Assembly: GCA_001599295.1 (NCBI GenBank)
Contig: BCGN01000002.1
Coordinates: forward strand, 1-64,000
Direction of reading: 5' to 3'
Length of the DNA: 64,000 nt
DNA from: Sporopachydermia quercuum
Lineage: Eukaryota
Positions 8,772 through 53,632 of the stretch are shown here, piece after piece (the stretch's first letter is position 1; every line of letters begins with the position of its first letter). The translations under genes and the position numbers were made by a program. The notes under the pieces are model-generated. The model saw nothing but the letters and a program-made list of their open reading frames with translations. It did not search any database and was not told the origin of the DNA.

Positions 8772-9815
8772 ATGATTGTCGCCAGAACACCTTTTCGTCG
8801 TGGTATCGTTTTGACAGCAGTGTTACTTCTCTTTTTGCTGGGTCTAATGTTTACAGGACAACCTTCAATTCTGGTTACAAATAGTAGTGAAGATGTTGAA
8901 CCAGTAGAAATAGTTCCTGAGCCCTCCGAAGGTCCTCGAAAGTATGCATACGCGACATTTTTATCTCATTATACCAAACCTGGGAAAGAAAATGCCCCGG
9001 ATGACAATAACATGTATTATTTGGCAACACGTGTCTTGGGATGGCAGCTGCTTTATGATAAAGACGTGATGACTAAGAAGGGTTATGATTTTGTAGTGAT
9101 AGTCACGAAGGAAGTTCCCAAATCAATGACGGATCAAATGAAAAAGGAAGGTTTGGTTGTGATACCGGTAGAATATCTCACTGCTTCATGGGTTAAAGCA
9201 GGTGATGAGAGATGGAATGCTGTGCTAACCAAATTGAGACTATTTGAGTTGACGCAATATGAGAAAATCCTGTTTATTGATTCGGATTCGTTGATTTTGA
9301 AGAATATTGATGGTGTTTTTCAAGATCATGGAGCTCGGATCATAAAAACCAAGAGTAATCGAAAGGCAATCAAGAAAGACGAAGCACCTTTACCAAGAGA
9401 GTATGTTTTTGGTGGCATCTCTGATGCAGTGAGTAAGGATCATACTTTCCCTCCTACTCCTTTACATTACTTCAATGCTGGGTTCTTTGTCTTGAAGCCT
9501 TCCCAAGAAGCTTTCGACTATTACTATTCAGTTCTTCAAATCCAAGACCGTTTTGATTCCAATTTACCTGAACAAAACTTATTGAATTACGCTCATAGGA
9601 AAGACGGAAATATGCCTGCTCAAAGATTGAACCAAAAATGGAATGTTAATTTTCCCGTTATGCGAGATGTTGAGATGGGTGTCGCGACTATTCATGACAA
9701 GTTTTGGGAAGGTCAAAGGCAATGGGAACCTATTGAAGAACCTTTAGAACGGTTATGGTGGCAGAAGAGATGGCAAATGGATGGCTATTACAAGGCTTTA
9801 GGTATCATAGAATAA
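8772..9815 (+). CDS. Glycosyltransferase family 8, type II membrane protein
   Basis: N-terminal TM helix, then YAYATFL, TKLRLFELTQYEKILFIDSD (DxD), YFNAGFFVLKPS and EQNLLNY, which are glycogenin-fold GT8 motifs. Confidence 0.88.
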   Translation: MIVARTPFRRGIVLTAVLLLFLLGLMFTGQPSILVTNSSEDVEPVEIVPEPSEGPRKYAYATFLSHYTKPGKENAPDDNNMYYLATRVLGWQLLYDKDVMTKKGYDFVVIVTKEVPKSMTDQMKKEGLVVIPVEYLTASWVKAGDERWNAVLTKLRLFELTQYEKILFIDSDSLILKNIDGVFQDHGARIIKTKSNRKAIKKDEAPLPREYVFGGISDAVSKDHTFPPTPLHYFNAGFFVLKPSQEAFDYYYSVLQIQDRFDSNLPEQNLLNYAHRKDGNMPAQRLNQKWNVNFPVMRDVEMGVATIHDKFWEGQRQWEPIEEPLERLWWQKRWQMDGYYKALGIIE

Positions 9816-10351
9816 TTTTAGCTTCAAACCAGGTAAGTCTGCCATTATATCTTGTGTTGCTGAGAACAACTATCAGAAAACGAAATAGAACCTATTTTTT
9901 TTTATCAAAGTCTATGATCTGTAATCTGTGGTCACCCCTCAAAGAATAGTTTATCATCAGAATAATCAATTTTTTGTGGTGGTATATTATACACTATTCC
10001 CATTAGTTGAGGTCGAACTTTACTTTCCATTCTCCTTATTACCGCACCCTTAAATTTGTGAAGTCATGTTTACCGCAGTATTGTGATCTAGGCCTAGTGA
10101 TTTGCAAGCATGTTGTCATTTTCAAACTATCATTGTTACTGGTAATTGAAAAGACAAGGTAATCTACAACTTTTGAACAATTACCGAACCGAAAGTGGAT
10201 GATTATCTCGAACAGAAGACATCTTATATCATACATACATATGGTAATGAAAATCAAATATATGAAGGTTCTCTATTTCCTTATTTCAACAATATGCCCT
10301 ACTATACTATTGTCCGCCTGCAATGTTGTGAATTCAATATATTTACAGCTT

Positions 10352-11823
10352 TCACGCCAACTCATAGGCCTCTTCTTTTTCTTCGTCTGGACGAGTAACA
10401 AAATGAGCGAATTTTCTAGTCAATTCTGCACAGAAAGGGTCAACATAATTCATCCAGAGATTTGCCACCCCGTATGTAACAGGGAAGAAGACTAAAAGAC
10501 TCAAAAAAAAGTATTTGTGTCCTCTGTAAGCTAGTGTCCCTGGGACCGTTTCTCCTTTATCATTCAAGGTTGATGGAACGAAAATGCCAAAAATCATCCA
10601 AGTAAGAATAGTTTTCATAGTAATAGAATGTAATAAATACACAGCGAATGATTGTCTTCCCAGCCATAAAAAGAATTTGTTCGACAAAACATCTCTTGCT
10701 GAAGAGGACAAATGAATGCTTAAAGCCATGAGGCATAAGCAAAATGTGGTTGCATACCTGGACAGTTCACAGCCTCTAGGAGTTATTTTCATGAGGAGTG
10801 TACTCAAGTCATGAGACCAGGGAATGGAGTCAATTTTTGCATCAGGCAAAGATCCCACCCATAATGCTAAAATGAAGAGCAAAGGAGATAGGATTCTGCA
10901 TAGAACTTTGTGATGAGATATAAATTCTTCTGCCGGCGGATAATTTTGAACATTACAAAGGAAAACACCAAAAAAAGTTGGCATTTGTACTGCGGCTATG
11001 ACTCGATGTTAGATTTGAACTAGGTTTCACAAAGGAAAGTGGAAATAATAAAAATCCAAAAAAAAAAAAGATAGAAACAAAACTTACCTTCATAACTTGA
11101 CCAAAAGTAAATGAATGCCAAAAAAGCAAATATTGTACGATTTCTCGGAGAGAATTTCACTGTCATGAAGGCAAATATGAATACATGCATAGCACCTTTA
11201 CAAAGAGGGAACAACGTCCATTGAAAAAAATCGTAGTAGTTATACGATTTACTCCATGTATGAACCAAATTCTCAATAAGACTGTAAAAAGTCGAAAAGA
11301 CGTCGTTCTTGGCCAGTGGTACAAATCTTCTCAACCAATCGCTACTGACATGAGAGGCAGGATAGAACAACCCTATATTTGTAAAAAGCCACATAATGAT
11401 AGTGACAATGATAGTAGGAAGTACTAAACGAGGTATTCTCCTCAAAGCGGAATCGGCAATCACTCTATATGCTTGATCATACTCGCCCGCGTTGCTTAGT
11501 TTTGTTGGTTTTAGCACGCAAACATATCCCGTGACGAACCCAAAGATAGCTACACCTAATCTGCCTTGGAGGAACACTCTGATAAATGGATACTGTAATA
11601 TCCTTGGAGGGATGCCTTCTTCATCACTAGGAAAGAATATTTTTTCATCAGCAACATGTGTTATATGAGTAATAACCACGCTGATTGATGCCAATCCACG
11701 TAATCCCTGGGATATCAAACAGTTAATATTAATCAGTACATCTCTCATTCCCTTCTATTCCATCGCTCCCAATTCCTCAAAACTTACATCAATCCATTTT
11801 ACGTTTCTTTTCAGAACCGACAT
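10352..11823 (-). CDS. Acyltransferase-3 family membrane O-acyltransferase. Exons 11823-11788, 11706-11088, 10995-10352
   Basis: Spliced N-terminus WID-GLRGLASISVVITH, GVAIFGFVTGYV, RRIPRL and WLGRQSFAVYLLH. Two GTAAGT..AG introns restore one reading frame. Confidence 0.88.
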
Positions 11824-12147
11824 AGTAAACTACAAAACAACGATTAACTTATTCTGCGTTAGTTGTCCTTCATGAACTCTGGTCTCCTGAACACCCAATA
11901 TCGAATCTAAATCCTTTGAACAAAAATAAGTGAGGTATTATGCCCAACCCAAAATAGTGAAGTACTTTACTATGTGCTATTTAATGAGATTGTTGAGCAA
12001 TGATCGATTATTAGTTTATTTGAATAGGTTGTACATCAGCTCAACTAATGCAGGGAAAATAACACAAATCAGAAGAGTAAAAGAACGCGTGTCCAGAATT
12101 AAACAGTCATATCATTAATGTAATACATAATTCCAACTTTAATAAGA

Positions 12148-12624
12148 TGTAATACGGAAGAGGTATTGTCCCTAATAATTCTAAGTTTTTTAAGTAGTTA
12201 TGTATATAGATTATATCCTGTAAGCCTTACTTTTTATATTAGTCTTCTTAGCTATGTAAAATGTAGAAGGGTACTTTCTTACTTTCTTACCGTTCACAGC
12301 TACTTCTAGTTAAAAACTCCCTTATTTGTGTCATTAAGATTTATAGGATACTGTAGATCTTCCTCTCACCAAGAAACTATTTTCGTAGTATTATCTTCTT
12401 TTTTTCTAGTTTTGGAATAACAACCATATAATCTAGTACATTCGAGTATTTTTCTTATCATTTAGACTTTACAACTTCTTACGCACGTAGGTTAAACCTT
12501 AACCTAATATTGTACATAATAACTGATCACATAATCATAATTATATGCCACTTCATGCAACATCCTGTTCTCTTTACATAAATATGAACTTGAAATATTA
12601 TGAATAAAGTTCGCGATTGTTACA
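12148..12624 (+). mobile_element. Solo LTR, older and more diverged member of the family at 19937, 22527 and 36499
   Basis: Starts TGTAATACGG, ends GATTGTTACA, and is collinear with the other copies. No clean target-site duplication (TAAGA / ATAGG). Confidence 0.8.
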
Positions 12625-13554: not shown

Positions 13555-14760
13555 ATGTGGCCAATAAGAAATAGAACCTATGCATCTATTGCAACCTTGG
13601 GAGTATTCTCAGTAATTACTCTGATTATTCTGCTCCATAGTAGCTCACCAGTAGCACTGTCAATAAGCACAAAGGCACCCAGTCTCCTTTCTAAATCTGA
13701 TGAAGATCCTGATCGAGATATTACTTACTTTAACTCCATCAATAATGTAACATTGGGTACTACAAAAATTATCTTTCTGAATATGCCCAATGCCTACAAT
13801 AAACTAGACGTAATGACTATGCAAAGCGCAGTAACTGGGATTGAATTTGAGGTATGGGACGGGGTAGTAGGTGAAAGTTTGAATCCAAAGCATTTACCTC
13901 CAAATAGTAATAAAATAAGAAACAAGACTGATTTGAGCGACGGTGCGAAAGGTTGTTTTCGTGCTCATGTTAATATATGGCAAGAAATGGTTCAGAAAAA
14001 CTGGCAAAGTGTTCTAGTTGTGGAAGCAGATGCCACTTGGGAAGTTAGTTTGAAACAAGACATGCAAAGAGCAGCAAAAGCTCTTAATGAAGTTACCAAA
14101 TTATACCCAGGCTATGATGAGAAATCAGAACCAAGCGAAAGTGATCCTTACAATACGGCGCAATGGGATCTATTCTATCCTGGAACATGCTGGGATGATG
14201 CAAAGACTTTAAGGAAAGAACAATATGTGAAATATAAAAGTCCTCGAGGACCACTTGGCTACACTTATGATGGTCAAAAACTTGCCGATGAGCGCATCAT
14301 GCGCAGAAGCGGTATACCAACTTGCACTGCAGGTTATATAATCAGTCAACAAGGTGCCAGAAAATTACTCCTTCACACAAGTTTAGATATGAGCACTCCT
14401 ATTGATAACTTAATAGGGGATCTATCGTCAATGAATATCCTCATTTCCTATGCTGCCTATCCCCCTATTATTCAAGTGTGGGGGTACAAACCAAGTATCG
14501 GTGCTGATGATAAACAATCTGATATCAGAAAGGTCAAAGTTGCTGATCAATCCGTGAATGCATGGCGATCTGTCTTTGAAAGTATGTCAGCATGGGAGAC
14601 GAGGAGAGAGAATCTTTATAAGTTTCAGCGCCCCGTACTCAATTCGCTAAAGGAAAAGTTTTACGGGAAAAAGATTGTTGAAAATAGCAAATTGGATAAG
14701 AAATTCCTCTCAACTTCTGCGCTCAATGAGAAATCTTCTGCGAAGAAGCAAGATGAATGA
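13555..14760 (+). CDS. Fungal GT25-like glycosyltransferase, paralog 1
   Basis: TM helix, then NNVTLGTTKIIFLNMP, GCFRAHVNIWQEMV, VLVVEADATW, WDLFYPGTC and CTAGYIISQQGARKLL. ATG 13555 is preferred to the TTG at 13471. Confidence 0.8.
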   Translation: MWPIRNRTYASIATLGVFSVITLIILLHSSSPVALSISTKAPSLLSKSDEDPDRDITYFNSINNVTLGTTKIIFLNMPNAYNKLDVMTMQSAVTGIEFEVWDGVVGESLNPKHLPPNSNKIRNKTDLSDGAKGCFRAHVNIWQEMVQKNWQSVLVVEADATWEVSLKQDMQRAAKALNEVTKLYPGYDEKSEPSESDPYNTAQWDLFYPGTCWDDAKTLRKEQYVKYKSPRGPLGYTYDGQKLADERIMRRSGIPTCTAGYIISQQGARKLLLHTSLDMSTPIDNLIGDLSSMNILISYAAYPPIIQVWGYKPSIGADDKQSDIRKVKVADQSVNAWRSVFESMSAWETRRENLYKFQRPVLNSLKEKFYGKKIVENSKLDKKFLSTSALNEKSSAKKQDE

Positions 14761-14830
14761 TGAAGTGGTACATTTTATCCTACTATTAGCTTGAGCCGAA
14801 GGCGAAAGACCCAGACTACATGGTCGCTAC

Positions 14831-18127: not shown

Positions 18128-19612
18128 CTAATCTTTATCCCACCAACTAGGGGATTTGTAATCATTGCTACTGTAATCAGTTTCATTATTACGATATTCA
18201 AGTGGCACTCTTTTCCGTCTCATCCAATAAAACAACCAATCATTAATAATTTTCTGTCCCGGAAAGTGTACCACCCAATCATTATCAGCCCAACTGGCAT
18301 CGAGATCATTTACACTTGATTCATATGCATTCATCAAATTCTGACTAACCATGGCAATTTTCTTCTGAAAGAATCTGCTATTGACAAAATGTGACGATAA
18401 TACATCTTGATCAAACCAGCCGGTCGGGAAATCAACAAATAACTGGTTGTCCCAAAACTGCAAAAATAAGTTTGTCCATTCTGTGCGTCTAAATATAAGA
18501 ACACCAGCATTAACTCCGAATAGATCATTGGCTACAATGATATCCATATTATTTACATCTTCAGGTTTTATCACCCTTGGAGGCTCGATATCACTTAAGG
18601 AGAGCCCAACTGAAGAAACAAGTTTCCCGACGTTCATATCTGGCTCAACACCGTAAAGTTGGTTGATAAAATCAAACTGTGTTGTTGCTTGTGCTCGTAT
18701 AAGTGGTCTTCCATAGGATAATTTATGTGCTAATGCTTTAGGATGCAATAGATGTGATGCTAGGTCGATCTCAGAATTCATAATCAACGCGTCAGTGTCA
18801 ATCCATACAATCCATTCAGCTTCAGGAAAGTCGTCAAATGCATTCTTGAGTGCAATTTGTTTACTCCAATATCCTCTTCTGTCAGCAATATTTATATCTT
18901 TTGAATTCATATCGTAAAACTTGACATCATATCCATGGTAGCGGGCATATTCTTCTCGATTTTGTCTAACCATATCAATTAAGTTTTTAGCCTTCAAATT
19001 CTTACCATCGCTGGCGGTCACGAGAACAATCTTTTTACCGGCTGGTTGCAGTACTCCATCATCATCATAATCATCTTTCGCGAACTCTATTTGCGTTTGA
19101 CGTCTGACAAAATCCCTTAGCATTATTTCTTGTCCCAACAAAGTCAACTTAGCACTTTTGATCCTCTCAAATGTTTCATTAATATGCCCTGGAAATTTTA
19201 GTAAATCGATACGATGTGCTTTATTCAGACTCAGCTCACTAGAAATGTCGTTTAACTTCCGTTCATTCAAAACATCAAAGCCGATAAGTGTATCAAGATC
19301 ATTTGACCTTTCTTGTGCAAATTCTTTTATTGATTGGACGTTAATATTCTGAGGCTTATTGGATTCTGGAGAATACCTATCATTGTTGCTAGTTAGAGGA
19401 GTAAGCGGTTTGGTCCCAACATTTGAAGGATCTTCATGAGCACTTTCTCCTAGCTTGGTTCTGTGCAGTAATACATCATATTCTTTAGGAGGAGGTATTT
19501 GTGTTACTTTAAACCCATAAATACTAAATAATGCAAAAATGATAAAAGCTAATATTCTTCTTCGCCTTTTAACAGCTACACGAACAGGTAGAATTTCTGA
19601 GAGTTTGCTCAT
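18128..19612 (-). CDS. Glycosyltransferase family 34 (GMA12/MNN10-like)
   Basis: TM helix, then KIVLVTASDG, NREEYARYHGY, WSKQIALKNAFDDFPEAEWIVWIDTDALIMN (DxD), GVNAGVLIFRR, DQDVL and DWVVHFPG. Confidence 0.88.
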   Translation of the reverse strand: MSKLSEILPVRVAVKRRRRILAFIIFALFSIYGFKVTQIPPPKEYDVLLHRTKLGESAHEDPSNVGTKPLTPLTSNNDRYSPESNKPQNINVQSIKEFAQERSNDLDTLIGFDVLNERKLNDISSELSLNKAHRIDLLKFPGHINETFERIKSAKLTLLGQEIMLRDFVRRQTQIEFAKDDYDDDGVLQPAGKKIVLVTASDGKNLKAKNLIDMVRQNREEYARYHGYDVKFYDMNSKDINIADRRGYWSKQIALKNAFDDFPEAEWIVWIDTDALIMNSEIDLASHLLHPKALAHKLSYGRPLIRAQATTQFDFINQLYGVEPDMNVGKLVSSVGLSLSDIEPPRVIKPEDVNNMDIIVANDLFGVNAGVLIFRRTEWTNLFLQFWDNQLFVDFPTGWFDQDVLSSHFVNSRFFQKKIAMVSQNLMNAYESSVNDLDASWADNDWVVHFPGQKIINDWLFYWMRRKRVPLEYRNNETDYSSNDYKSPSWWDKD

Positions 19613-19936: not shown

Positions 19937-20372
19937 TGTAATACGGAGGAGGCGTTGTCCTTAATAATTCTAAGTTTATTAAGTAATTATGTATATAGGA
20001 TATATCATAAAAGCCTTATTTTCTATATTAGTCTTCTTAGCTATGTGAAATGTAGAGGAGTATTTTCGAGTTGCTTTACAGCTACTTCCTCATATTTAAA
20101 TATTCCCTTTTTTGTGTTATTATCTTCTTTCTTTCTTGTTATGTGAAAACAATCATATATTCATTCACATTCGAGTATCTTTCCTCTACCATTTAGACTT
20201 TACTACTTCTCATGCACGTAGGTTCAACCTTAACCTAATATTGTAGCCAGTAACTGATCACATAATCCTAAGTATATGCAACTTGATGCAACTCCCTGTT
20301 CTTCCTACATAGAGATGAACTTAAAATGATATCAATAAAGTTCGGGACAGTAACTTTATTGCAATTGTTAGA
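19937..20372 (+). mobile_element. Solo LTR
   Basis: TGTAATACGG...TTGTTAGA (terminal CA changed to GA). Nearly identical to the reverse complements of 22527-22953 and 36499-36935. Flanks are TAGTC / CCAGA. Confidence 0.88.
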
Positions 20373-20669: not shown

Positions 20670-22187
20670 ATGGCTCCTCAAAAAAAGCTTCAATGGATTG
20701 AGGTATGTCTGTAATTGCTTAGACTTGAACGAATACAATCCTAAAACAACAGCTAATCATAGTACTCTTATATGTACTCTTATATCACTTTCTATTGAAT
20801 ACTATTGTTGCAATTATTAAGGAGTTGTCACGACTAACAATTTCTAGGGATTAAGAGGTGTAGCTTCCTTTTTAGTTGTAGTGACACACGTATGTCGCGC
20901 GTTCGCACCTCTCTTATTTCGTCCTTCTAATGGAGAAGGCATTGCACCAGGTTTCTTGCAACTCCCAATTATTCGTGTGTTCATTCAAGGTCGCATCGGT
21001 GTGGCATTATTTTCCTTAGTAACTGCCTACGTTTGTGCTCTGAAACCAATCCGGCTATGTAATTCGGGAGAGCAGACCGAGGCTCTAGCATCATTGAGCA
21101 AATCATACATACGTAGAATACCTCGTTTATTGATCCCTACTACTTTTTCAACTGTAATCATTTGGCTACTAGTGCAATTGGGAGCTCTAACCATTGCAAG
21201 AAGATCAGACAGTCAATGGTTAAGAGATACTGCAGCAGCAAAGAGTCCCAATCTTCTGTCGGCTATTTGGTTTCTTCTCAAAGATATTGTTAAAACATGG
21301 ACAAGAAACCAGTGTCACTACGAACCTAACCAATGGACACTATTACCTTTGCTTATGATTTCCATAAGAACTTTCATGTTTGTTCTTGCGACATCTAATA
21401 TTCAATCAAAATATCGAATGGGATTATGTTTGGGACTTTTGGGTTATTGGTGGATTTTTGGCGATCGTAAGTATAGGAAAAGTGAAATTGTCAACAACTC
21501 ATAAATGGATCGAATCTAACCAAGAAAACTGTAGCTACATTTGGACTTCCTGGTTATTTTGGTATATTCTTTTGTGAGTTTCAACTTAACGGATACTTTA
21601 AAATTTTTATCAGAAAGTATCCTCTGACTTGTCATTTCATAAGCACGACATTAATTATTGTTGGATTATATGCCGCGTCAGTTCCAGAGAAAGAAGAGAC
21701 TTGGACTCAGTGGTCTACTAACCTTCACAATTTTTTTGAATCAATTATTCCCAAAAATGCATCAGCTGATAGATTCGGAACATTTGTTGGAGTAGTTTTG
21801 TTAGTTTTTGGTTTGCATTTTTCTCCTGCAGCTTGTAATCTACTATCCAACAAGTATTTTTTATGGCTTGGAAAACAGTCGTTTGCTGTGTATTTACTTC
21901 ATGGAGTTATGATGAGAACAGTACTTACATGGATGCTGTACGGGGTTTCTCTACCAGCTGATATAAAAAATGATAAAGGGGATATGGTGAATGGACAATT
22001 AGTTTATCCCGGACATGTATACCTTTTGGGCTGTTTAATAATTTGGTTCCCAATGTTGTATGCCATTGCGAACCTTTGGATGCTCTATGTTGATCCCATT
22101 TCGGCCCGTTTAACTCAAGTCACTATCCAATTTTTGTCGAAATCTTCCGAGGAGAAAACTAATGAGACAATTCGACACATAAGCTAG
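20670..22187 (+). CDS. Acyltransferase-3 family membrane O-acyltransferase, paralog 2. Exons 20670-20702, 20848-21466, 21535-22187
   Basis: WIE-GLRGVASFLVVVTH, QGRIGVALFSLVTAYV, RRIPRL and WLGKQSFAVYLLH. Intron positions match those of paralog 1 and the spliced frame is open. Confidence 0.88.
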
Positions 22188-32369: not shown

Positions 32370-33510
<1,141 letters not shown>

Positions 33511-36430: not shown

Positions 36431-36498
36431 CAATGAAACTTTCTATGATGTAAATTAAATTCATGGTTGTGTACGACGAGCAGGAAGCTACATGAACT

Positions 36499-39259: not shown

Positions 39260-40519
39260 ATGTCTCAACAAATTAGTAGCTCGAAAATGTTCACTTTAAG
39301 TTTGTTAGCTTCATCTTGGAAGAAGGAAATAAGAATTAAACCTTTTAGAGCCTACACTTATGTTTTAGCTTTACTGTTGGTTATAATTCCTACTTTTACA
39401 ATACTACAAAGTGATCTGAGGCACGGATTCAAATTGGTTGATACAGGCAATTTCATAAAAAACGACCATTTCAACGAAGAAAGTCGAAATTCGGTAGTTG
39501 TTGAAGTAGAACAAGCGAAAACTCCGAAGACGTATTTTAACTCTATCAACAATGCAACGCTAGGAGTAGAGAAAATCATTTACATTCACTTACCTCAAAA
39601 TTTGAACAAGCTTGATATTATGACTATGCAATCGTCAGCTTCAGGTATTGAATTTGAGGTTAGAGAGGGTGTTACACCCGATAGTCTATCAGATAAAGGG
39701 TTACCTCCCAATTTAAACACTTGGAAAGGAGGAAATGACATGAAGCTAGAGGAAAAAGCCTGCTGGAGGGCACATGCTAATATTTGGAGAGAAATGGTGG
39801 AATATGGATGGAGTAGTGTTCTTGTTCTAGAGTCTGACGCCACTTGGGAAATAGGTTTGAAACAAGACATGCAAAGAGTTGCCAGAGCTCTGAACGATGT
39901 TACTATAGCATATCCTGGATACGAAAGAGACGTTGAACCACATGAACAAGATCCTTGGAATACCAGGAAGTGGGATATGTTTTATCCAGGATCTTGCGGA
40001 GATAATGAAAAGGAATTGAGAAAAGATCAATTTTTGAAATATGAAAGTCCCGAATCTCCAGAAAATTATGAATATTTTGCCGACAAACTTGTAAATGAAA
40101 GAGTTGTGAGGAGAAATGGTGCTCCACTATGCACTACAGGCTATATTATCTCTCTAGAGGGAGCAAAAAAGCTACTACTGCGGACCAATGTAGATATGAG
40201 CTATCCTGTTGATCTAATTATTGGTGATTTGTCTCGCGATAACAGATTGATTTCTTACAGTGTATATCCGCCTTTGATTCACTCGTGGGGCTATGTTCAA
40301 GGTATCGGTGCAGAGGATAAAGAGTCTGATATTCTCGACAGAATGCCAGGAGATCAACACGTCGAAGCGTGGAAACAGGCTTTTGATAGATTTGACGCTT
40401 GGAGAATTAGAACAGAATACAAGGTAAAGCACCCCATTCTAAGTTCCTTGAAACAAGACTATTTTAGGGAAGAGATAATTGAAAACGATATTATAAAGAT
40501 AGACTACGTGCCGGAATGA
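39260..40519 (+). CDS. Fungal GT25-like glycosyltransferase, paralog 3
   Basis: TM helix, then NNATLGVEKIIYIHLP, ACWRAHANIW, LVLESDATW and CTTGYIISLEGAKKLL. Confidence 0.82.
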   Translation: MSQQISSSKMFTLSLLASSWKKEIRIKPFRAYTYVLALLLVIIPTFTILQSDLRHGFKLVDTGNFIKNDHFNEESRNSVVVEVEQAKTPKTYFNSINNATLGVEKIIYIHLPQNLNKLDIMTMQSSASGIEFEVREGVTPDSLSDKGLPPNLNTWKGGNDMKLEEKACWRAHANIWREMVEYGWSSVLVLESDATWEIGLKQDMQRVARALNDVTIAYPGYERDVEPHEQDPWNTRKWDMFYPGSCGDNEKELRKDQFLKYESPESPENYEYFADKLVNERVVRRNGAPLCTTGYIISLEGAKKLLLRTNVDMSYPVDLIIGDLSRDNRLISYSVYPPLIHSWGYVQGIGAEDKESDILDRMPGDQHVEAWKQAFDRFDAWRIRTEYKVKHPILSSLKQDYFREEIIENDIIKIDYVPE

Positions 40520-41325: not shown

Positions 41326-42503
41326 ATGACTGAAAGAGTCTCCAAAATGAACCAGAATATCTAGATTTGTTCGTGCTGCTTCTAATAATAGTAGCTCTGA
41401 TGGTAAGAAGCAACCTCCAACAAGTTTTCATACATACAGTCGAATAGTAATCGACAGTGAAAATATATGCATAGTATATAAGAGCCTTGGAGTAATCGCC
41501 GAAAAGCTAAATGTTAAAGACCCTTTTTTCTCGTTCAATAGCTGTACTCTTGGTGTGACCAAAATCATTTACATCAGCATGTCTCACAATCATAATGAAT
41601 TAGACATTATGGCAACGCAAACTTCAGTTTCGGGGATTGAGTTTGAGGTAAGGGAAGTGTAGACCAGAGTTTTTTGCCGGTAAGGGGCCTTTCAACTATT
41701 ATTAATTCTATTAGATATTTTCCTGATCTGAGAGGATGTGGAAAAGAGTGCTGGAGAACGCATGGAGAGAGATAATAAGCAACTGGGAAAGTGTCTTAAT
41801 GTTGGAATTAAATGCCACTTGAGAAGTTGGTTGAAAGAGGATATGCAAAGAGATTCGAGAACATCAACTGAAATCATGAGTTAATATATACCCTGGTTAT
41901 AATAGAAGCGTCTTACCATCGGTAGTTGATCCTTGGAATGGTGAATAACGGGAGTTATTTTATTCTGTTTGAAGTGGAGACAATACGGAAGAATTAAGAA
42001 GAGATCAGTTAATTCCATATGATGATGGTGAATCAGTAGAAAATTATTCTTTCATGGGTAGAAGTTAAAGAAGGAATGGGTAGTCCATTGAAACGGCGCA
42101 GCTTTATATTCAGCAGGGTATTCTATTTCCTTACAAGGATCTAAAAAGCTTATACCAACACTAAGAAGTAGTACGGAAATGAGCTATGCAGTTGATTTAT
42201 TCATTAAAGGTATATCCCATGCGAACAAACTAGTCACCAACAGGGTATATCCACCATTGATTCACTCTTGGGGTTAGGTGGAAGGGCTTGGGGCAGAAGA
42301 TAGTGATTCTGATACATGTAATTTTACATGGGAGGAACAACAATCAGGGACATCGAATTTGGCATTAGAAGCTTTCAGTGCCTGGAGAACTGGTACTGCT
42401 TATCAGTGAAACGCCCAATAATCATTCCTACTCTTTATAAGTAGCTTTTTCGCTGATGATTTCATCAATATTGAGTGTGAGGAGATACATTATTCACCAA
42501 AAT
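41326..42503 (+). pseudogene. Full-length decayed GT25-like pseudogene, tandem copy of paralog 3
   Basis: TLGVTKIIYI..ELDIMATQTSVSGIEFEVRE near 41545-41655 and VYPPLIHSWG*VEGLGAEDSDSD near 42245-42313, with many stops and frameshifts. Ends are approximate. Confidence 0.82.
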
Positions 42504-44046
42504 AATTTGATTTGTATCATTACAATTGGAGGAGTCATTTTTTTAGGGAATCAGTAATAAACTTATTGGAATAATCATATTACCGCCGCATCTAGTCAGT
42601 TATTTACTATCGGGAGTCAAGTTCAATAGCTACGTATGTTATGATGGAGTATTCAAGTAGTTAATTAATAGATGCCAAGTGCAATAAAAAGAGGAAGGTA
42701 TCATTTTGATATATGATGATGCTACTTGAATTTTAAGCTTTATTAATTCTATAAATCATTGCATATCTCAAATTACTATGTTTTGTTACAACAGAATGAA
42801 TGACATCGTTGAACAAGCGGACCAGAAATTTAAGACTTCAGAGAGCTAGTATTCAGACAGAGAAATGGAAAAGTTCGAGAAATCAGTTTTTCTCGGAGAG
42901 GTTTGGCGTGATGAAATATAAGCGTGATCTGTATATCAGTTTGATGTTGTACTGCAGACTCTTATACTTTGGTTCATGTGATATCCGAAATTATAAATAA
43001 CGGGTTCACCATAACTTTTTTCCAAACTTGGAAGTAGAGATCCTTCAATAATAAGTGCAATATGTCATATAAATGAATAGATTAATCAAAGAAAAGAATA
43101 CGATAAATAAGAAAATAACATTCAAAAAGTACAATATTAAGATATATGAAGTATGGCTTTATTCCTATGAAATGTTATTGATGGCAAGAATCGTTCTACG
43201 TGATCAATTTTCGTTTCATTGTTCTATTGTAGAGATTATGACAACAACAGAAAACGACCGCACTATCCTTCTAGTCAGAAATATAGTTACTGAAAAGTAC
43301 ATTAATTAGGTTCTATTTGTACAATGCCCAATTGCATTTAAAGTATATGCAAGTTTCCTGCATAAAGTATAATTCAAATACCTGAGCGTCTGAACCCTTT
43401 TCAAACAATTCAAAATTTGTAATTTGTTGTTAGGTAAAGCAGTTAAAAATAAAAGTTCATCTATCAAATCTTTACTTTTCAGCCTTCTAGTTATAAGTTT
43501 TGAGATAAATTGTCGTTTACCAACAGCTAACCCTTAAGTTGATCCTTCGTCCTCTTCGTTCACCTGATTCTCCCTTTCCCTCTCCCGCCTCCTCATAACC
43601 TCCCGACTAACTCCCAACCATCTTTGCTCACAAATTGCTACATCAACCTTGCATGAGATATCATCCCTACCTAACATTCTTCGATGTCTTTCTTTCTTCC
43701 TCTTTTCTTCCTATCATTTTCCACTCAGTTCTCCTAATTTCCTTTTTCTCAGCTGTCAATAGCGAACTATAACCTAACTCTTTTTTTTCCATCTCGTTCA
43801 TTTTCACCTCTTACTTATTTCTGCCTAACGATCTCTCCTTTTCTCAATACTTTTTTTTGATCCTGTTCCATGACTACCTCACTTATTCCTCGTCTATGAC
43901 CATACAAAAAGAGAAGATTGACAGAGAATATCAGTTCTAGAAGGAACACACTTTTTCTTATTCTACAAACCCTTTGATTTTCTTTTTCGTACAGGGGTTT
44001 ATTCTTTGTTGATATTCGACACAATCTCGGTAACATTTTCGCGTTC

Positions 44047-47000
44047 ATGAAGGTTAATCGCATTGACTGTTGCAAGTGTAAATGTAAACGATATCACAAT
44101 GACGACCGTTACGGCATCATCAACACGGCCTCGGAGGACGACTAGTTAAAAAATTGAGTACTCTGATGATATTATTAACTCAGCCGTCAAGCCCATAGAA
44201 GTTGAGATTACTTCTGAATCGAGTGGTAAATCTCGGAACATTTCTGCAAATGGCAGTAATACCAGCAACGGAAGTAAAAGAAAACAATGGAGGAAATCGG
44301 ACTCTAAGAGAAATTCCCCATGAATCTCGTCTTCTTTAAATTCAACATCGAGCCGGTCTATTACCGGTTCCGCCTATAGTTATGGTTCTACTAACCCTTC
44401 CATTCTCTCAGCTTCTTCGGACCAAACTGCAGTATCGACTTCTAATACCGCTACAAAGGAACTTGTTCCTTGGAATTGGCAACCGAAACCAAGCAAAGAG
44501 ACTTTTTTTCCTTCCTCTTAGATTTGGAATACGTTATCATTCGTTCAGATGGCATTTTATATTTGGCCGATGGTTCAACATTAGCACCGAATGGTATGTA
44601 TACATTTCTGGGGATTATAATGGGAGGACAACTACGAAGGAGGGGTGAGATAAATTTTAGAAGGGAGATCAAATCACGAGATACGGACGCTTATTTTGTT
44701 TGTTATAAGGTTGGAAAAGAAAGAAAGAAGAAACGAAGAAAAAGTGAACAGTGGAATAATCAGATTTATTCAAAAGCGATACCAAATTTTTTATCATGGA
44801 AGTAAATGTCATTTCCTGCTCATCAATTAGCGGCTCATTCATCTTCATCTTATAGTAGCTGAGCCATTTGATACTTATTATGAACAAACTGGAAAGGATT
44901 TAAATCTATGAAATCTCATCTGCTTTTCGTTCAGAACTTTGAAAGACAATATCAATCAACTGTTAATTTCTAGCCTTCTTTGAACAGTGTCTTATCCAAG
45001 ATCTCTACAGCATGCCATGCTATTTACTATGATTTAAAACTTTAGGATGAGTAGCTGCATGAATCAATACATTTATTTTCAAACGAGCAAATGCTATTAA
45101 TAGGATCTTATTGGTTTCACGAGAGTTGCCTGAATTTATGAGGATTTTTACTCCTCGCTTGATACATCTAACGGAATTTTGCATTTATTCTTGTCCAGTA
45201 TCTGCATTTGCTATATTTATGGCAGTTGTGTCAAGTTTTTGAATAGAACCTTTGAGACTAAATGATTCTTGTTTCACATATCTTAACGTTTGAGCATGAA
45301 ATGAAATCTTGAAAATCTGATTTGACGCATCGTTATCCTTGTGTATGCTTATGGTGCACGCTTTGTATAGAGTTAGTGTATGGTTGAGTAGAGCTATGCA
45401 TGATTTTTACTACAACTTGGCTTTTTACACCCTCAACTTCCTCTCCAATCAATCCCTTTCTCTTAGCTCTTTTTCCCTCAAATTTCTAACGCAGTGACTC
45501 ACTTTAGATCACATATACATGGTTTCGGAACCTCCGTGTGAACCTTATTATATTGGCAGAATCATGGAATATGTGCCAAAATCCTTAGCAAAAGATAACC
45601 AGCCCAAGCATATTTCTATTTCTGACGACGCCGCTTACCCCGCATATCTCTCAGATAGTTTGTCGTACCTGAAATCTCGGCCCGAACACCCTGCTGATAA
45701 GTTCATGGTTCGGATGAACTGGTACTACCGGCCAAGGGACATTTCCCGTCATTCTGCCGATTCTCGACTTATTTTCGCATCAATGCATTCTGACATTTGC
45801 CCTTTAACTTCCTTCCGTGGTAGATGTTCCGTAAACCACAAAGATCACATCCCGAATATGACTGAGTATCGGAGAAAACCGGATCATTTCTGGTTCGTTA
45901 AACTTTTCGACCGCTATATGATAAAGTTTTACGACATGATCCCATTAGAAAAGATTATAAATCTTCCACCTGAGTACTTTCAATTGCTTCAAGACCGTTT
46001 CCGCTTTTTATTTTTCGAAATTGGCAAAGGGAAAGAGTATTGTGAACCGCCGCGAAACTGCTCGGAGTGTGGGCATTGGTGTTCTCCTTTTGATTCCGTT
46101 GAGTGTGCCCATTGTCGAAAGGATTTCCATATGGGGTGTGTGAGTCCGCCTTTATACCGCAAACCCACCCGGGGTTTCGGATGGTCATGTGCGGGATGTA
46201 GCCGAGAGTTAGAGTTGAAACTTCGGGCCAATCGCGGTCTCACTAGTAATAGGTTATGGGAGGTTGCTGCCGAAGCGGAAGCGGGAAAGATACCGGAAAC
46301 TGATCTGAAACTAGAATCTGAAACCGAAGCTAAACCGGAAGCAGTAAAGGAACAACACCTCGACAAAGAAACAACTACTGAATGTACTCCTGAAATTACC
46401 CCACCAAAGAATTTACCCCGATATTTAGAGCTTTCACAGCTTTTCCGAGAAAAAATCCACAAAACCTATATTCCGCTTCAGTGGCACCATCTTAAAATGT
46501 GGCCCTTTCGCTGTATGGGCATACACGCAAAATTAGAAGACTTGTTGGACGTTGACGATAGGTTGAATGCCTGAGCAGCATCTCGTCTCGGATCTCGGCA
46601 TCAAGTTTCGGAAGCAGCTATTCCTAATTGGTACGGCAAGCCGGTTATTTATTATGTCCCCAAGGAAGAGGACAACGGGAATAAGGTTAAGAATAAAAGA
46701 AATCGAAAGAGCAAGAAAGCAATGGAGGCGGAAGCAGAACGGAAGCGGGAGATATCGGAATACCGGCATGTTCTTCCTCTGAAGAAATCAGAAGGGATCC
46801 CGAAGGGATTCCGCTTCCATGGTATCAAGAAGTGCCTCCCGGATACGTTGAAAGAGGCGGCGAAGACACTGTGAGTTTGATATGGAAACCAGCTGAAAGT
46901 TCCGAGATTATTTCCGATGTTGAGGTAGCAGCATACTTAACAAAGGCCGGGATATACGCTGAGAAGTTACTTCTCCGTCCGGATACCCCAAATTTTACGG

Positions 47001-49376
47001 ACGCTTGTCTCCAAACCTTACTGAGCTGCAACTATAGTGTGTCAAAAGCGTTGAAAATTGTTCCTACTTTTTCCCGGCAAACCTTGAAAGAGCCGACTTT
47101 TTACCGAAGTCGCCCGGTTTGAAGAAGGAGTTCGTATGTATGGATCGGAACTGCATCCGGTTTATCAGCATGTGAAAACGCAGCCAAGTGCTATGATTGT
47201 CCGGTTTTACTACTTATGGAAAAAAACACCTTCCGGACATGCAATTTGGGACAATTTGGAAGGCCGAAAACAGAAGTGGAAGCCAAAAGATGCCGGAAGT
47301 GGAATGGGAAGCGGAAGCGCAGTCGGAAAACATATCGGCACGGAGATTGAAGACGGAAATTATGTGGACACTGTGGCCTCTTCAGAAGATGATTCGGGAT
47401 ACGATGTCCGGAAAGCTCGGATGCAGAAAAGAACATTCAAATGTAAAGTTTGTTGAACCACCAACTCAATTGTATGGAAACGAGCTCCTGGACATGCTAT
47501 AGCTGAAGCTGAAACGGAAGAAATAACAGCACTTTGCTTCCGATGCGCTCGTCTATGGAGATTATATGCTGTAACTTGGGAGGAGCCACCGGAAGTACTT
47601 CGGAAGTTGAGCCAACGAGGAGGGGGAGGATGGAAACGTCGAATGGAAGAAGAGTTGATTCGAATGCGGAGAAGATAACGGAAGCTCGGAACTCTGGCGT
47701 TGAAGTTACTTTCCCTACTGCTAATTATAGCTATGAGGAGTGTTTCAGTAACGAACGAATTCAACGGAAAAGGTTACGAAAAAAGCGGAAGTTATCTGCT
47801 AAATCTAAGAATGGTATAAATAGAATTCCGGAGAAGATCACAAACACATCGAAACTGGAAAAGATGTCGAAATCTCGGAATAAATCCACAATTATTTCTA
47901 CAGTGAAACTCAATAAACCTGAAAAGCGAAGACAAAAAGAGCCACAACTAGAGAGAACCTTGAATGCGACACTAAAACCGCGAAAGCGCATCAAACCGGA
48001 AAAGTTAAAAATTCCCAATAACGATAATACTCAACCTAATTTTGGATCTTGTATTATTTCCGATATTACTTCTCCAAAATCGGAAATCATAGCCGAATCC
48101 AAGCACAAACAGCAAAAAAAGCAGAAAAAGCGATCTCTAGATGCTTCCGCAGTGGCTCCAACAACGACTATTGCGGCTGCTGTGGCTGCTTCCAGTGGTC
48201 GAACGAAACATTCAAACATCTCCTCTTCTCGGATCTTGCAATTAGAACAAGCTTCCGATACCATCCCTTCCGGTTAGGACGTCGGGATACCTTTCAAAAC
48301 TCCGTTCAGTACTAGTGCCCGTGTTTGTTGCGTTTGCCATAGTCTGGCACCTTCGCACAATATGGCTATATGTTGTTCATGTGGACTTAATGTGCATAAG
48401 ACATGCTACGGAATACCAGAGCTGGGAACAAATCTCGGGTCGGCCAAATGGCTTTGTGACGTTTGTAGTAATGACTCAAATCCAAAAGTCTCTACTATTT
48501 ATGCTTGTGTATTATGTCCAGTAAGAGAAACGGATCATGATGCTGCCAATCACAGGACTCGATTCTGCTGAGCCGGTCGCTTTGAAACGGACTGCTTCAA
48601 ATAACTGGGCACACGTGATGTGTGCTGTTTTTATGGATAATTGTAAATTCGGAGACGTTGTTCATCGACAGCCAGTTGAAGGGATATCCGAGATTCCCAT
48701 CTTGGCACTAGAAACCACTTGTACGATCTGTCGAACAAATAACGGAGCTTGTACGCGGTGTCGCCTATGTGACATCCCCATTCATGTTGGTTGTGCTTTT
48801 CGGAAACGATTCTTTTTTGGGTTTGAGATACAGTCTCCGGAATCAGCAAATTCAGCTGAGAATAATGGAAATAATGAAATAATAAAGTTTGGGCCAAATA
48901 CAGAAGGAATACCTAGACCGGTGATTGTGTGCCCTCGACACGACGTTTCAGAATTTCCATTTTACTCCATAGCAGATAAAGTCATCGATTCGGAAGGAAC
49001 CGTGTTGGATTTGTATTGCTCGAAGTATAAAATGGCAAAACCGGCGAACACAGGATGTATGAAACGCTATGAAGAATATCAACGGCTAAGAAGGAACATT
49101 TTGGAATCGGAGAAACTGAATTCCGGAAATCATAGCGGAAGTCGCGGAAATCGCGGATTGAAAAAGGAGAAAATGGCTGGGGGGAAAATTGATCTGTTGG
49201 GGATAAAACCGGAGATTATAGCGGAAAAGGTGTTAAGATACATGGAAGCAGGAAATGAGGAAATGGCAAAGGAGAGTATACCGGACCCCATTTTGGAAAA
49301 GGCTTCGGAAGAAAATTTACTGGAAATTGTAGTTAAAATGGAACCACAAACGGAGAAATCAATGCAGATTGGCTAA
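44047..49376 (+). pseudogene. SNT2: SNT2 pseudogene
   Basis: Collinear with the intact copy but has stops at 44147 (TAA), 46572 (CGA>TGA), 47454 (CGA>TGA) and 48275 (CAG>TAG), and frameshifts near 44053, 44510, 46770, 47100, 47660 and 48550. Confidence 0.92.
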
Positions 49377-49690
49377 CCAGAACGGCAATGAACATGGGAA
49401 ACGGAATAGCATGACGAACCAATACTCTGAAAACTTCGTTTATCCCTTAAATTCAAGAAATGGGAGCATCTACACATCGTAAACTCTCCTGTTCTGCATA
49501 TAGATGTATCAAATAATTAGTTAAAACTTCCTACCTAGAGTGGGGACTTTATACTTTACCCCCGTTTGATACTTCTTGCATAATCGTACCTGTGGACCGT
49601 AATAAGTACATTATAATATATTAGAACGGCGTCTTCTGTAAATCTGTAAATACCCTTAATATCTTGTTAAACACAAAGAGTACTATTCCC

Positions 49691-50640
49691 TCAATGGCCT
49701 CGCAATAACCTCTCGATCCTAGAAATCTCTTCCAATGTTGTTGCTGCACCTAACACTTTCAACAATCGTTCCTTCTCCTTTTCGGAGAGATTCCGTGCCG
49801 AGACTTCGGATCCTGGTCCCGGTCCCAAGATTGTGGTGTATTCACCAACGTCAAACCTACTAGACTTCACTCCCAACAATTCTGCGGCAGCCGGGGTAGG
49901 TTCCGATGTCGTTCCAAACAGTTCAAGAGCTTGCTTCCGTTCTGAATCAGTCACCCGATCGAAATCCAAAACCCTCAAACACGGTATAAGCCGCACGACC
50001 CATAATCGGTAATTTTCTTTATATGTTACCGGATTGTTTATCAAAGATAGAAACACAAGCGATCCGGATGTATGCATTTTCGGAGAAGCTTCTGATATTT
50101 CAGACAAATCGATTGTCGGCTCATCGGTGTTCGGTTGAGCTTCGGTATTAATACTGCTGAAGCTCCGGAGCGGATTCAAATCCCATAGATTTTCTATTCC
50201 GTTATTTGCCAAAACTAGCATGGTCAGATTAGGCAATGATTTTCTATTGAAGGATTTTTCTTCTATTGATTGTATCCGGTTTCGAGATTGTAGCAGAGTT
50301 CGTAGTTTTACCAGTTTAGGGAAGTTGCCTAGAATTCGGATATTGTTATCGGATAAATCAATGGATTCATTTATATCCTAATTAGCTAAGCTGGTGGTCA
50401 GAACAGAAATAAAGAGGAGTATAGAGATGAATGGTTTATACCTACTCGGCTAACGCCCAGATTTTCAAAATGGGGAATTTTTCGTCCTAGTGAGAGAGTT
50501 AAGGTTAGATCAGATTTCCTAAATCCGATTGTTAACATCATCCGAGTTCCATCATACTCACCTCGAAGGTCAATTTCTCGTTCTTTATTTGCATTCAAAT
50601 ATGTTGGAGCATATTGTATAACATCAGCTGTGAGTCTCAT
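49691..50640 (-). CDS. LEA1: Second U2 snRNP A' copy. Exon frames are open but function is uncertain
   Basis: Same three-exon layout as the outer copy. The intron-2 branch point TACTAAC reads CACCAGC here, and an LRR leucine is changed (TLLLS>TLLQS). Confidence 0.65.
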
Positions 50641-51681
50641 TGTATAACACTTCGGCTTTTCCTCGGTTGTCAAGTTTACTTCTTTAGATAAGTTTCTAAG
50701 TTAATGAGTAAATAAATCAGAAACTGTATTAGTTTCTAGTCAGAGGATCAGTCGAAATTTGAAAGCTTCCAATGGTGACCAACGTCCAATGTCTAATATC
50801 CAATGTGGTTCATGGATTGTGTTTTTCTGTTTTACAGTCATCATACAACATAAAGACTGAATATAAAGTATCCTGAAAGGGAGGAGGTTACCTCCCAAAG
50901 GAAATTAGAAGTTTCATTATTTCGGAAATTGTAGTCATTCTATAGTTTCCGGAATTGTAACTTTATTCTCATACCTCCTGCTTACCGAGCTTCAACATTC
51001 ACTTCATTGACATTTTTATTGTTGAGTTGGAATGCCGAAGGAAAACTACCATACTAATTTCAGCTCATTTAATTAAAACAGAATGATTCTATTTATAATC
51101 TGCTAAATTAGCGAATACATGTTGACAAACATAATTGAAATACCGAAATTCGTACATATGGAAAGGTCTTGACCAACCTAGATACTTTGCTCAAACTCAA
51201 AGTCTATCTGGTACGGACTTTAACTTGAAACATCGGGCTAGCAATATAATTATGTACCAATGGTAGACATTTAGGTTAGGTTCTCGTTTAATCTAAACAA
51301 ACTGCAAAGTTTATTCTATTGATTACGAAAGGCTATTGTGTTAGTAGGTTAATATTGAATGTATGGTGATGGCACTTATATCTCGTAGACGTGAAAATAA
51401 CTGATTGATTGTTGGTATCCTTGTATTTTGTTGATATATAATATGACAAATATGTGATATTAACATGAGATAACCTGCGGATAAACACCTTGATTAAGTG
51501 ATAGTAATAGCGATTTTGGAATAATTAAGAGTAAGATTAACGGATTAGCATTTGACTGCTTAGACCATACTACATTTACTATTAAAATAGATCTTGGAAA
51601 TTACACTTATTCGAATTGGATTAACGAGAAGATTAATTTGGGAAGTAGCCATGTGAAGAGAGGAATAAAAGGATTACGAGC

Positions 51682-51935
51682 AAAAATATCCTGTAGAACA
51701 AAAGGGTAAGAGTCCCCCTGATTGTGATGATATTCAGTATGAATACAAACCATGAAATTGTGGCCTATCGATCCTTTAGTCCCTCGGAATTTGAGGCTAG
51801 AGGTGCCAGAAAAGTTACCACATGTATAACTGGCTTATGGCAGTCAAGTATTCATAACGACATTGCTCATTGGTCATTCGATGTCGGGCTCTTCCTGTCA
51901 TACCGAAGCAGAATTCGGTAAGCGTTGGATTGTTC
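51682..51935 (+). pseudogene. Isolated, mutated fragment of 25S (LSU) rRNA domain V
   Basis: GTAGAACAAAAGGGTAA..GTGGCCTATCGATCCTTTAGTCCCTCGGAATTTGAGGCTAGAGGTGCCAGAAAAGTTACCAC..GCAGAATTCGGTAAGCGTTGGATTGTTC. The conserved ACAGGGATAAC reads ACATGTATAAC, and no flanking rDNA is present. Confidence 0.92.
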
Positions 51936-52495
51936 CGTCACTAAGCTATCCCATATCTACACTACGCATCTATTTCTCAATAGATATACGCCTTGATAGC
52001 ATGCCAACTTGTACTTCTGCCAAGGATACCTACCTGATGATAATATGAACTAATAATATTATTTACAGCTGTAAAGTATAGTATTATTTACCTTTGCTTT
52101 TGCAATTTCCGTTATTGGGTGCTACAATACTGAAAACGTGCGCTATTTTCAGTGAGTTAGTATTATGAATTGTTTAGTTCTGATCACTTGAAATAACATT
52201 CCTATTCGTAGGTAGTAGATTACTTTTTTTGTTCCGCTATTTCAGCTATTGAGTTCCAATCGCGACCGCAGTAATGTGAGGAGCTTTCATTCGAACATGA
52301 GATTTTAGACTTTCATTCCATTAAAATATAAAAGTTCTTTTTTTCTCAATAATTCTTGTTTCTAAGGTGAATATTCAAAAACTTAGACTATTGATTGTTA
52401 GAAGCTTCTTGGATTTCTAGTTTTCATTCAACCTCTATATTTTTCTTACATCTAGTATTTTGAGCACTTTTTCTGTAATTTCGAATCTGAATAGA

Positions 52496-53632
52496 ATGAT
52501 TTTGAAGTCAAAGTTTACTCACATCCTTATTGCTGCGTGTGTCACACTGGTCATCATAATTTTGGAAGAAACTACTTTACAGCTTATCACAAGTAAAGCA
52601 GCTGAGCATAAATCATTTTCTTACTTCGATAATACTGGAGCAAACAGTAAGGACTATGCGAATAATGAATGTATTCCCAATGACCTTCATATGGTTTATG
52701 TTCTAATCAAGGATCCTACAGAAGATCTTGTACTACATTTTAAACACTTTCTATCTGTTTATTCTGCGTACTATTTTTGGAAACCTCGTACTATTTACTT
52801 CCACACTAATATGCCAGATGAAAATCTCGAAAGGGCACTCAATGGTGAAATGGGAAAGTGGACTGAAAGTATATTGAAACTTCCAGGTGTGAAAGTAAAC
52901 TACGTCGAAGCAGTTAAAACAACAAATACAGGGGCTAAAATTTGGGGACCAGAGCATGTTTCGGACTTTATCAGAGTGGCTGTGGTTAAAGAATTGGGAG
53001 GTATTTACATAGATTTGGACGCATTTGCTCTTAGAGATATCAGAGATTATAGGTGTAGTGGTTTCAAAACAGTGTGTGGCAGACAACCTGGAGGATCCAT
53101 TAATAGTGGTGTCTTCTTTTCTGTCAAAAATTCTGAGGCTTTGACCCTTTGGAAAGAAGAAATGCACAGAGTATACAATGGGAAATGGATTACTCACAGC
53201 AATCAGGCTTTGAAAAGAGTAGTTGAAAGATTGTCAAGGGAACAGAATGAAGTTTTAATAATGCAGGAGATAACTTTTGCACCTGTCAGTTGGAAACATG
53301 ATTCACAAGTAAGATTATTCGAAGTTCATGAGGATGCTATTAATAATCTAGAGCTTATTGATATTGAAGGGAAAGACCTTCCTGAATATATAGAAGAGTT
53401 TGATGGTAGTTGGAATAACTCCAATGACGTTCCCTCGTGGGACGTTGACTTTTCACAGGTTGCAATATTACATTCTTTCGAATCAGGACCAAAGGGAATT
53501 CCGGGGTTTAAGGAAATATCCCCTTCATATATATTGGCAAGACAGAGTGTCTTTGCAAGAGCCCTATACCCTGTCGTCCGGGATATGGTTATAAATGATT
53601 GGATATCAACTACAGATATAGAGGAACCATAA
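52496..53632 (+). CDS. Glycosyltransferase family 32-like (DxD sugar-binding) type II membrane protein
   Basis: TM helix, then CIPNDLHMVY, FLSVYSAYYFWKPRTIYFHT, EHVSDFIRVAVVKELGGIYIDLD and INSGVF. Confidence 0.82.
   Translation: MILKSKFTHILIAACVTLVIIILEETTLQLITSKAAEHKSFSYFDNTGANSKDYANNECIPNDLHMVYVLIKDPTEDLVLHFKHFLSVYSAYYFWKPRTIYFHTNMPDENLERALNGEMGKWTESILKLPGVKVNYVEAVKTTNTGAKIWGPEHVSDFIRVAVVKELGGIYIDLDAFALRDIRDYRCSGFKTVCGRQPGGSINSGVFFSVKNSEALTLWKEEMHRVYNGKWITHSNQALKRVVERLSREQNEVLIMQEITFAPVSWKHDSQVRLFEVHEDAINNLELIDIEGKDLPEYIEEFDGSWNNSNDVPSWDVDFSQVAILHSFESGPKGIPGFKEISPSYILARQSVFARALYPVVRDMVINDWISTTDIEEP

Follow-up and report, generated by a model that had tools for sequence, protein, structure and literature searches.

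We analyzed a 64,000-nucleotide (nt) stretch of Sporopachydermia quercuum DNA (contig BCGN01000002.1, positions 1 to 64,000, forward strand; hereafter the window) that carries a run of glycan-related genes close to a chromosome end. The window is fungal DNA of about 35% GC with short introns bearing GTAAGT...CTAAC...AG signals, and the run of genes, hereafter the island, occupies positions 8127-43294 (35.2 kb) between the two arms of an inverted duplication. Its content was examined with two Pfam scans, one covering all ATG-initiated open reading frames (ORFs) of at least 150 amino acids (aa) together with selected shorter ORFs, and the other covering stop-to-stop frames of at least 70 aa from 6 to 58.6 kb (58 proteins scanned of 91 frames). 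Both scans detected only glycan-related families in the 8.1-43.3 kb interval, in agreement with an earlier note on this DNA, which had described every recognizable gene between 8.7 and 42.5 kb as glycan-related. Nine island genes are intact, comprising one GT8, two acyltransferase-3 (AT3), three GT25-like, and two GT34 genes and one epimerase gene, and they are arranged as follows.

8772..9815, plus strand: GT8-like type II transferase (347 aa, DSD at residues 170-172)
10352..11823, minus strand: AT3-1 (three exons, 11823-11788, 11706-11088, and 10995-10352; 432 aa)
13555..14760, plus strand: GT25-like a (401 aa, type II anchor)
18128..19612, minus strand: GT34a (494 aa, canonical DTD)
20670..22187, plus strand: AT3-2 (three exons, 20670-20702, 20848-21466, and 21535-22187; 434 aa)
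24307..25725, plus strand: GT34b (472 aa, divergent, DSQ at the DXD site)
29279..30418, minus strand: GT25-like b (379 aa)
32370..33510, plus strand: UDP-glucose 4-epimerase (two exons, 32370-32435 and 32518-33510; 352 aa)
39260..40519, plus strand: GT25-like c (419 aa)

The GT8, AT3, GT25-like, and GT34 assignments proposed in the earlier note all scored above the Pfam cut-offs. The values were 143.5 and 78.1 bits for GT34a and GT34b with Glyco_transf_34 (PF05637, GMA12/MNN10; cut-off 23), 53.2 and 64.5 bits for the two AT3 proteins with Acyl_transf_3 (PF01757; cut-off 31), 75, 43.8, and 59.6 bits for GT25-like a, b, and c with Glyco_transf_25 (PF01755; cut-off 24), and a marginal 27.2 bits for the GT8-like protein with PF01501 (cut-off 24.3). 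The nine open frames span 347-494 codons, splice signals are intact in five introns, and the expected motifs are kept in eight of the nine genes, the exception being GT34b.

The three GT25-like proteins share 45-56% mutual identity with 113 invariant alignment columns, and their profile matched the catalytic domain of human procollagen galactosyltransferase 1 (E 4e-10). All three carry E-[A/S]-D opposite the human E-D-D; in the profile alignment, LEADATWE lies opposite FEDDLRFE. When the GT25 alignment was used in a word-indexed protein search, six matches of at most 33% identity were returned, too few for a tree, and those with names were from Sordariomycetes; no assigned function for fungal GT25 proteins was found in open-access papers and preprints. 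The GT8-like protein matched glycogenin (E 1e-07), and the nearest Atlas clusters of both this protein and GT25-like a were uncharacterized Ascomycota clusters (0.97-0.98). For GT34a, an exhaustive search gave 775 matches at E 0.001, the best at 38% identity (E 2e-53), with named top matches from Geotrichum, Lipomyces, Limtongia, Dipodascopsis, and Sugiyamaella, and a word-indexed protein search returned nothing at E 1e-5. Using the Kyte-Doolittle scale (19-residue window, mean of at least 1.6), a single N-terminal hydrophobic segment was called in six of the seven transferases. The N-terminal anchors attributed earlier to all of the transferases are thus borne out except in GT34b, which has a shorter hydrophobic start and falls below the threshold.

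The epimerase gene, detected by Pfam as an NAD-dependent epimerase, comprises two exons of 66 and 993 nt separated by an 82-nt intron, and the GGAGYIGSH nucleotide-binding motif is encoded in the first exon. Its product matches residues 28-357 of Saccharomyces cerevisiae Gal10 (PDB 1z45, 699 aa) over its whole length (E 1.2e-149), conserves the NAD-binding and YxxxK regions, and ends at Gal10 residue 357 of 699. A stop codon directly follows the epimerase domain, and no mutarotase remnant was present 3' of it in the three read-through frames of 33511-35702. The gene identified earlier as GAL10 therefore has the epimerase domain of that protein but is, as judged from its sequence, a two-exon epimerase-only gene rather than the fused form. 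In some early-branching yeasts the epimerase and mutarotase are encoded by separate genes.

AT3-1 and AT3-2 are 40% identical and have introns at matching positions. Members of the AT3 family are reported to require an R/K-X10-H motif in the first helix and an RXXR motif in the first cytoplasmic loop (PMC9558356, in excerpt). Both gene models contain R-X10-H and RXXR (GLRG...TH, RRIPR), and both encode stand-alone proteins without an SGNH domain. The targets of eukaryotic AT3 proteins were described as unknown in passages of the same 2022 review (PMC9558356).

The island is bracketed by 7.7-kb arms, the outer of which lies next to a terminal repeat.

1..96, no strand assigned: telomere repeat (about nine copies of an 11-nt unit; eight overlapping matches versus zero expected)
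475..8126, no strand assigned: left, telomere-side arm of the inverted segmental duplication (intact LEA1-like, SNT2-like BAH/PHD, and orf195)
1942-5877, minus strand: SNT2-like BAH/PHD gene in the left arm (1311 aa, intact, Pfam)
43295..50976, no strand assigned: right, inner arm of the inverted duplication (decayed copies)

The word depth of the terminal repeat in the sequencing runs was about 70 times that of its flanks. We conclude that the repeat is a telomere and, because the window opens with it, that the island is truly subtelomeric, as the earlier note had supposed, lying 8 kb from the chromosome end. The printed strand of the 11-nt unit is the C-rich one. Logan contigs from three runs in two studies spanned both the telomere junction (68-1020) and the junction between arm and island (6913-12861) with zero differences, although these runs are possibly the source of the assembly and hence do not constitute independent support; read depth was even over both junctions.

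By blastn, 475-8126 aligns in inverted orientation with 50906-43295 at 82.9% identity over 7775 columns, and an extra block (95-167 versus 50976-50903) extends the homology to the telomere junction. The right-hand end of the homology passes into unique DNA that lacks telomere repeats. In the inner arm, the SNT2 copy is broken into at least four ORFs and the orf195 copy is frameshifted, with the main exon of the LEA1 copy still open. The orf195 reading frame (6764-7351, minus strand; 44051-44625, plus strand, in the other arm) encodes a Ser-rich product of 195 aa with no Pfam family and is 75-90% identical between the arms; it is a candidate gene only. This layout, in which the housekeeping genes are intact beside the telomere and decayed in their second copies inward of the island, clearly records the rebuilding of a chromosome end. 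One simple and provisional history would be a break at the distal edge of the island, outward copying of the inner arm, and healing of the end by a new telomere. A telomere-like match at 43599 was dismissed as chance on the basis of its three mismatches and the lack of a counterpart in the other arm. A Starship-like or composite-transposon origin of the arms was likewise rejected, as the arms consist of duplicated housekeeping genes of the host, and the Pfam scans revealed no transposase or recombinase domain.

A tblastn comparison of the intact proteins with the window revealed the four relics of island families that had been noted previously, namely two GT25 pseudogenes together with a GT34 fragment and an epimerase fragment that are joined in one chimeric relic.

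26022..27110, minus strand: chimeric relic (N-terminal half of a GT34 gene, frameshifted, fused to a C-terminal piece of an epimerase gene)
28329..28889, plus strand: GT25 pseudogene, 5' half only (inverted partial copy of GT25-like b; 63% identity to residues 1-183)
41492..42502, plus strand: GT25 pseudogene (pieces in different frames; tblastn)

Intact and broken copies thus number three and two for GT25, two and one for GT34, and one and one for the epimerase, with two intact AT3 genes. Within the chimeric relic, the GT34 fragment (26291-26722) and the epimerase fragment (26091-26285) are on the same strand, and their junction would be best explained by a deletion between GT34 and epimerase genes that once stood in tandem. 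Such a deletion would suggest the former presence of a second pair of adjacent GT34 and epimerase genes.

Four solo long terminal repeats (LTRs) of about 430 nt with TGT...ACA ends were located in the island by repeat comparison.

12129..12623, plus strand: solo LTR carrying an additional insert; the most divergent copy
19937..20370, plus strand: solo LTR with TGT...ACA ends
22519..22953, minus strand: solo LTR in inverted orientation with respect to the copy at 20 kb (98% identity)
36491..36954, minus strand: solo LTR within a 5.6-kb gene-free stretch

AT3-2 sits between the two inverted, 98% identical copies, and no tRNA gene was found near the LTRs. Read-through Pfam scans of two gaps between genes, 33.5-35.7 kb (plus strand) and 14.8-18.1 kb (six frames), found no family. 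The latter gap contains a pair of 161-nt inverted repeats (15192-15352 and 16485-16645, 88% identical) enclosing 1.1 kb that is free of genes and of protein families.

Our tentative interpretation, in which we place slightly less than even confidence, is that the window holds a subtelomeric, lineage-specific island of Golgi glycan-decorating genes that act jointly and that grew by repeated local duplication and decay. Five glycan families follow one another within 35.2 kb with no unrelated gene detected among them, an adjacency of several enzyme classes that fits one pathway. A chance origin of this succession is unlikely; by a rough estimate in which about 2% of genes encode glycan enzymes, five independent families in a row would be expected at about 0.001 per genome. 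In the pathway that we envisage, the cytosolic epimerase (352 aa) would interconvert UDP-glucose and UDP-galactose, and the donor would enter the Golgi through a nucleotide-sugar transporter not encoded in the island. If the type II membrane transferases reside in the Golgi and galactose is the sugar moved, they would add hexoses to acceptors that may be mannoprotein or glycosphingolipid glycans, with alpha linkages expected from family mechanism for GT34a and the GT8-like enzyme and beta linkages for the three GT25-like enzymes. The two AT3 membrane proteins would use cytosolic acyl-CoA to acylate the glycan in the lumen; the group transferred is probably acetyl, so that O-acetylation is predicted. 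The island products would thereby probably act on the same surface-glycan pool, and the island is predicted to decorate existing glycans rather than to build and export a separate polymer.

Several results weigh against joint action of these genes. No UDP-galactose transporter is present in the island, and no k-mer was common to the 10 upstream regions beyond what shuffled sequences gave (the top 8-mer occurred in 6 of 10 regions, and a count of at least 6 was reached in 71 of 100 shuffles). Linkage of these families elsewhere, to which the earlier note had looked as a mark of a true cluster, was not seen, as none of 19 metagenome loci (128 kb in total) with a distant GT25 relative (23-30% identity) had another island family nearby, although this is a weak test owing to the short flanks and remote relatives. 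GT34b lacks the second Asp of the DXD motif, a position that is Asp in 111 of 124 aligned GT34 rows and Gln in GT34b alone. In a FastTree analysis of those 124 rows, from which 28 of the 150 listed matches had been dropped as shorter than 280 aa, neither window copy was placed in a supported clade. GT34b had a branch length of 2.43, its closest neighbor being a Neolecta protein with the automatic name gmh1-like, and the automatic names of 20 GT34 representatives are an uninformative mixture of "MNN10," "MNN11," and "gmh." The paralogs are 40-56% identical, so that much, probably most, of the gene count appears to derive from local duplication. Finally, the coding density of intact genes is about 32% (by arithmetic from the gene models), and this value, the four solo LTRs, and the four gene relics would also fit relaxed selection at a chromosome end.

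Several of these features are what would be expected if the locus were a nursery of subtelomeric paralogs with no joint pathway, in which non-essential surface-modifying genes accumulate and duplicate at rearranging, relaxed chromosome ends and each enzyme serves its own pathway. We regard this explanation as a credible one that is nevertheless doubtful. It accounts well for the telomere 8 kb away, the solo LTRs, relics, and 7.7-kb inverted duplication, the low coding density, a gene count supplied mostly by duplication, the lack of a common promoter word, and the absence of linkage in the 19 distant loci. It accounts less readily for the gathering of five different families, a nucleotide-sugar supply enzyme included, with no unrelated gene among them, or for the retention of open frames and catalytic motifs in nine genes (apart from the DXD of GT34b), and the GT34-epimerase relic is a hint of past joint duplication of such a pair. 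A more extreme proposal is that the island is a largely silent, decaying remnant whose frames are open only through the recency of decay. The proximity of the telomere, the many pseudogenes and solo LTRs, the 5.6-kb gene-free stretch, and the broken DXD of GT34b are all compatible with this idea, but we judge it improbable in view of the nine open frames of 347-494 codons, the five introns with intact splice signals, and the full-length match of the epimerase to the Gal10 epimerase domain. The GT25 paralogs, which have diverged to 45-56% identity yet keep 113 invariant columns, point to long-term constraint.

Joint action of the island genes on a surface-glycan pool, the interpretation that we favor, also has a stronger form, which we consider unlikely. 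In that form the island would be a co-regulated, self-contained module specifying a surface-glycan coat that is particular to the lineage, O-acetylated, and galactosylated in both alpha and beta linkage, and that could change quickly at the chromosome end through duplication, decay, and telomere-linked silencing. It would be a eukaryotic counterpart of the variable bacterial O-antigen loci, with AT3 genes perhaps derived from wood- or insect-associated filamentous fungi. Were this true, a glycan target would for the first time be known for AT3 proteins of a fungus.

Horizontal transfer of at least the AT3 genes from a filamentous ascomycete of the Sordariomycetes, followed by local duplication, has a slim chance of being correct and is a lead rather than a finding; it could be combined with either joint function or independent accumulation of paralogs. 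A search with AT3-2 exon 2 gave 47 matches, of which all named ones were from Pezizomycotina; the best reached about 50% identity and most were 432-448 aa long, whereas AT3-1 is just 40% identical to AT3-2. In a maximum-likelihood tree of AT3 proteins (48 rows, with one fusion protein excluded) both window proteins grouped with a Ceratocystis protein (SH-like approximate likelihood ratio test, SH-aLRT, 96). This group was nested in a 27-row clade (SH-aLRT 100) containing all of the named Sordariomycetes rows, and the Eurotiomycetes and Leotiomycetes rows were placed outside it. Nevertheless, a tree in which all 45 remaining ingroup rows formed a single clade was not rejected by an approximately unbiased (AU) test (log-likelihood difference 3.86, p 0.292), the branches of the window proteins are long (1.0 and 1.2), and the search was word-based, so that yeast homologues may have been missed. 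The AT3 introns also carry the host-type GTAAGT...CTAAC...AG signals, the GC content of the island is in line with that of its surroundings, and the nearest relatives of GT34a belong to early-branching yeasts.

On the far side of the inner arm lies a further transferase gene that the earlier note had assigned to the cluster.

52496..53632, plus strand: GT32 transferase (378 aa, DLD motif, 36.4 bits)

This gene is 1.5 kb past the outer end of the right arm and about 10 kb from the last island relic. Because decayed copies of three unrelated genes stand between it and the island, its membership is doubtful and we do not count it. Between the inner arm and the GT32 gene are two fragments of eukaryotic large subunit (LSU) rRNA (51633-51952, plus strand; model positions 2621-2984 of 3401; 52.6 and 63.4 bits), possible remnants of an earlier chromosome end or of an rDNA array. 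Farther inward, a THI6-like gene (56392-59596, plus strand) is interrupted. The match to TMP-TENI profile positions 1-83 ends at 56688, and the match to positions 113-180 begins at about 58343, where the reading frame is that of the thiazole kinase portion. The intervening stretch of approximately 1.6 kb is rich in repeats, including an extended series of Thr codons at about 57.3 kb, and the interruption is either a very long intron or a disruption.

Taken together, the results uphold the family assignments and the functional coherence that the earlier note had perceived, with a nucleotide-sugar supply enzyme, Golgi-type transferases of both retaining and inverting families, and membrane acyltransferases, but its interpretation is only partly supported, as local duplication accounts for much of the gene count, the GT32 gene lies outside, and the resemblance to a capsule locus is loose. 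Fungal glycan genes are usually scattered, with clusters known for only a few polymers, and no description of a yeast glycosyltransferase island was found in open-access papers and preprints. The island unites sugar-nucleotide supply, three transferase families, and two AT3 genes in a single deletable target, and it bears on two questions, the role of fungal GT25-like and AT3 proteins and the diversification of surface glycans.

Bacterial O-antigen and capsule loci (OafA/OafB, OacA) resemble the island in bringing together sugar-nucleotide supply, transferases, and AT3 proteins with the R-X10-H and RXXR motifs, as far as excerpts of the review describe them (PMC9558356). The likeness that the earlier note drew to such loci goes little further. 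The genes in the window are eukaryotic ones that have introns and encode type II anchors, their AT3 proteins are without SGNH domains, and no initiating transferase, processive synthase or polymerase, Wzx/Wzy-type flippase, or ABC exporter was among the Pfam matches of the scanned frames.

The closest precedents are fungal, namely the neighboring gmh1, otg1, and gmh2 genes of Schizosaccharomyces pombe and the galactosaminogalactan cluster of Aspergillus. According to excerpts of the S. pombe source (PMC3664816), gmh1 (GT34), otg1 (GT8), and gmh2 (GT34) bear the consecutive names SPAC5H10.11,.12c, and.13c and lie at the left end of chromosome I, in a terminal region that is dispensable; the gmh genes are designated alpha-1,2-galactosyltransferases, and otg1 is tied to work on alpha-1,3-galactosyltransferases. 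As in the window, Golgi-type transferases of the GT34 and GT8 families stand together near a chromosome end. Unlike the island, the S. pombe group consists of three genes from two families and has no GT25, AT3, or epimerase gene, and the window GT34 and GT8 genes are at most candidate orthologues of gmh and otg. The five-gene galactosaminogalactan cluster of Aspergillus and Metarhizium includes the epimerase gene uge3 (PMC8224951, PMC7229062, both in excerpt) and, like the island, places a UDP-glucose 4-epimerase-type gene beside glycan-making or glycan-modifying enzymes. It is set apart from the window by its secreted polymer, deacetylase, and hydrolases. The window instead encodes acyltransferases and decorating transferases of type II, and the Pfam scans found neither a synthase nor a deacetylase. 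The window island is larger than either of these precedents and adds GT25-like and AT3 genes to the combinations that they represent.

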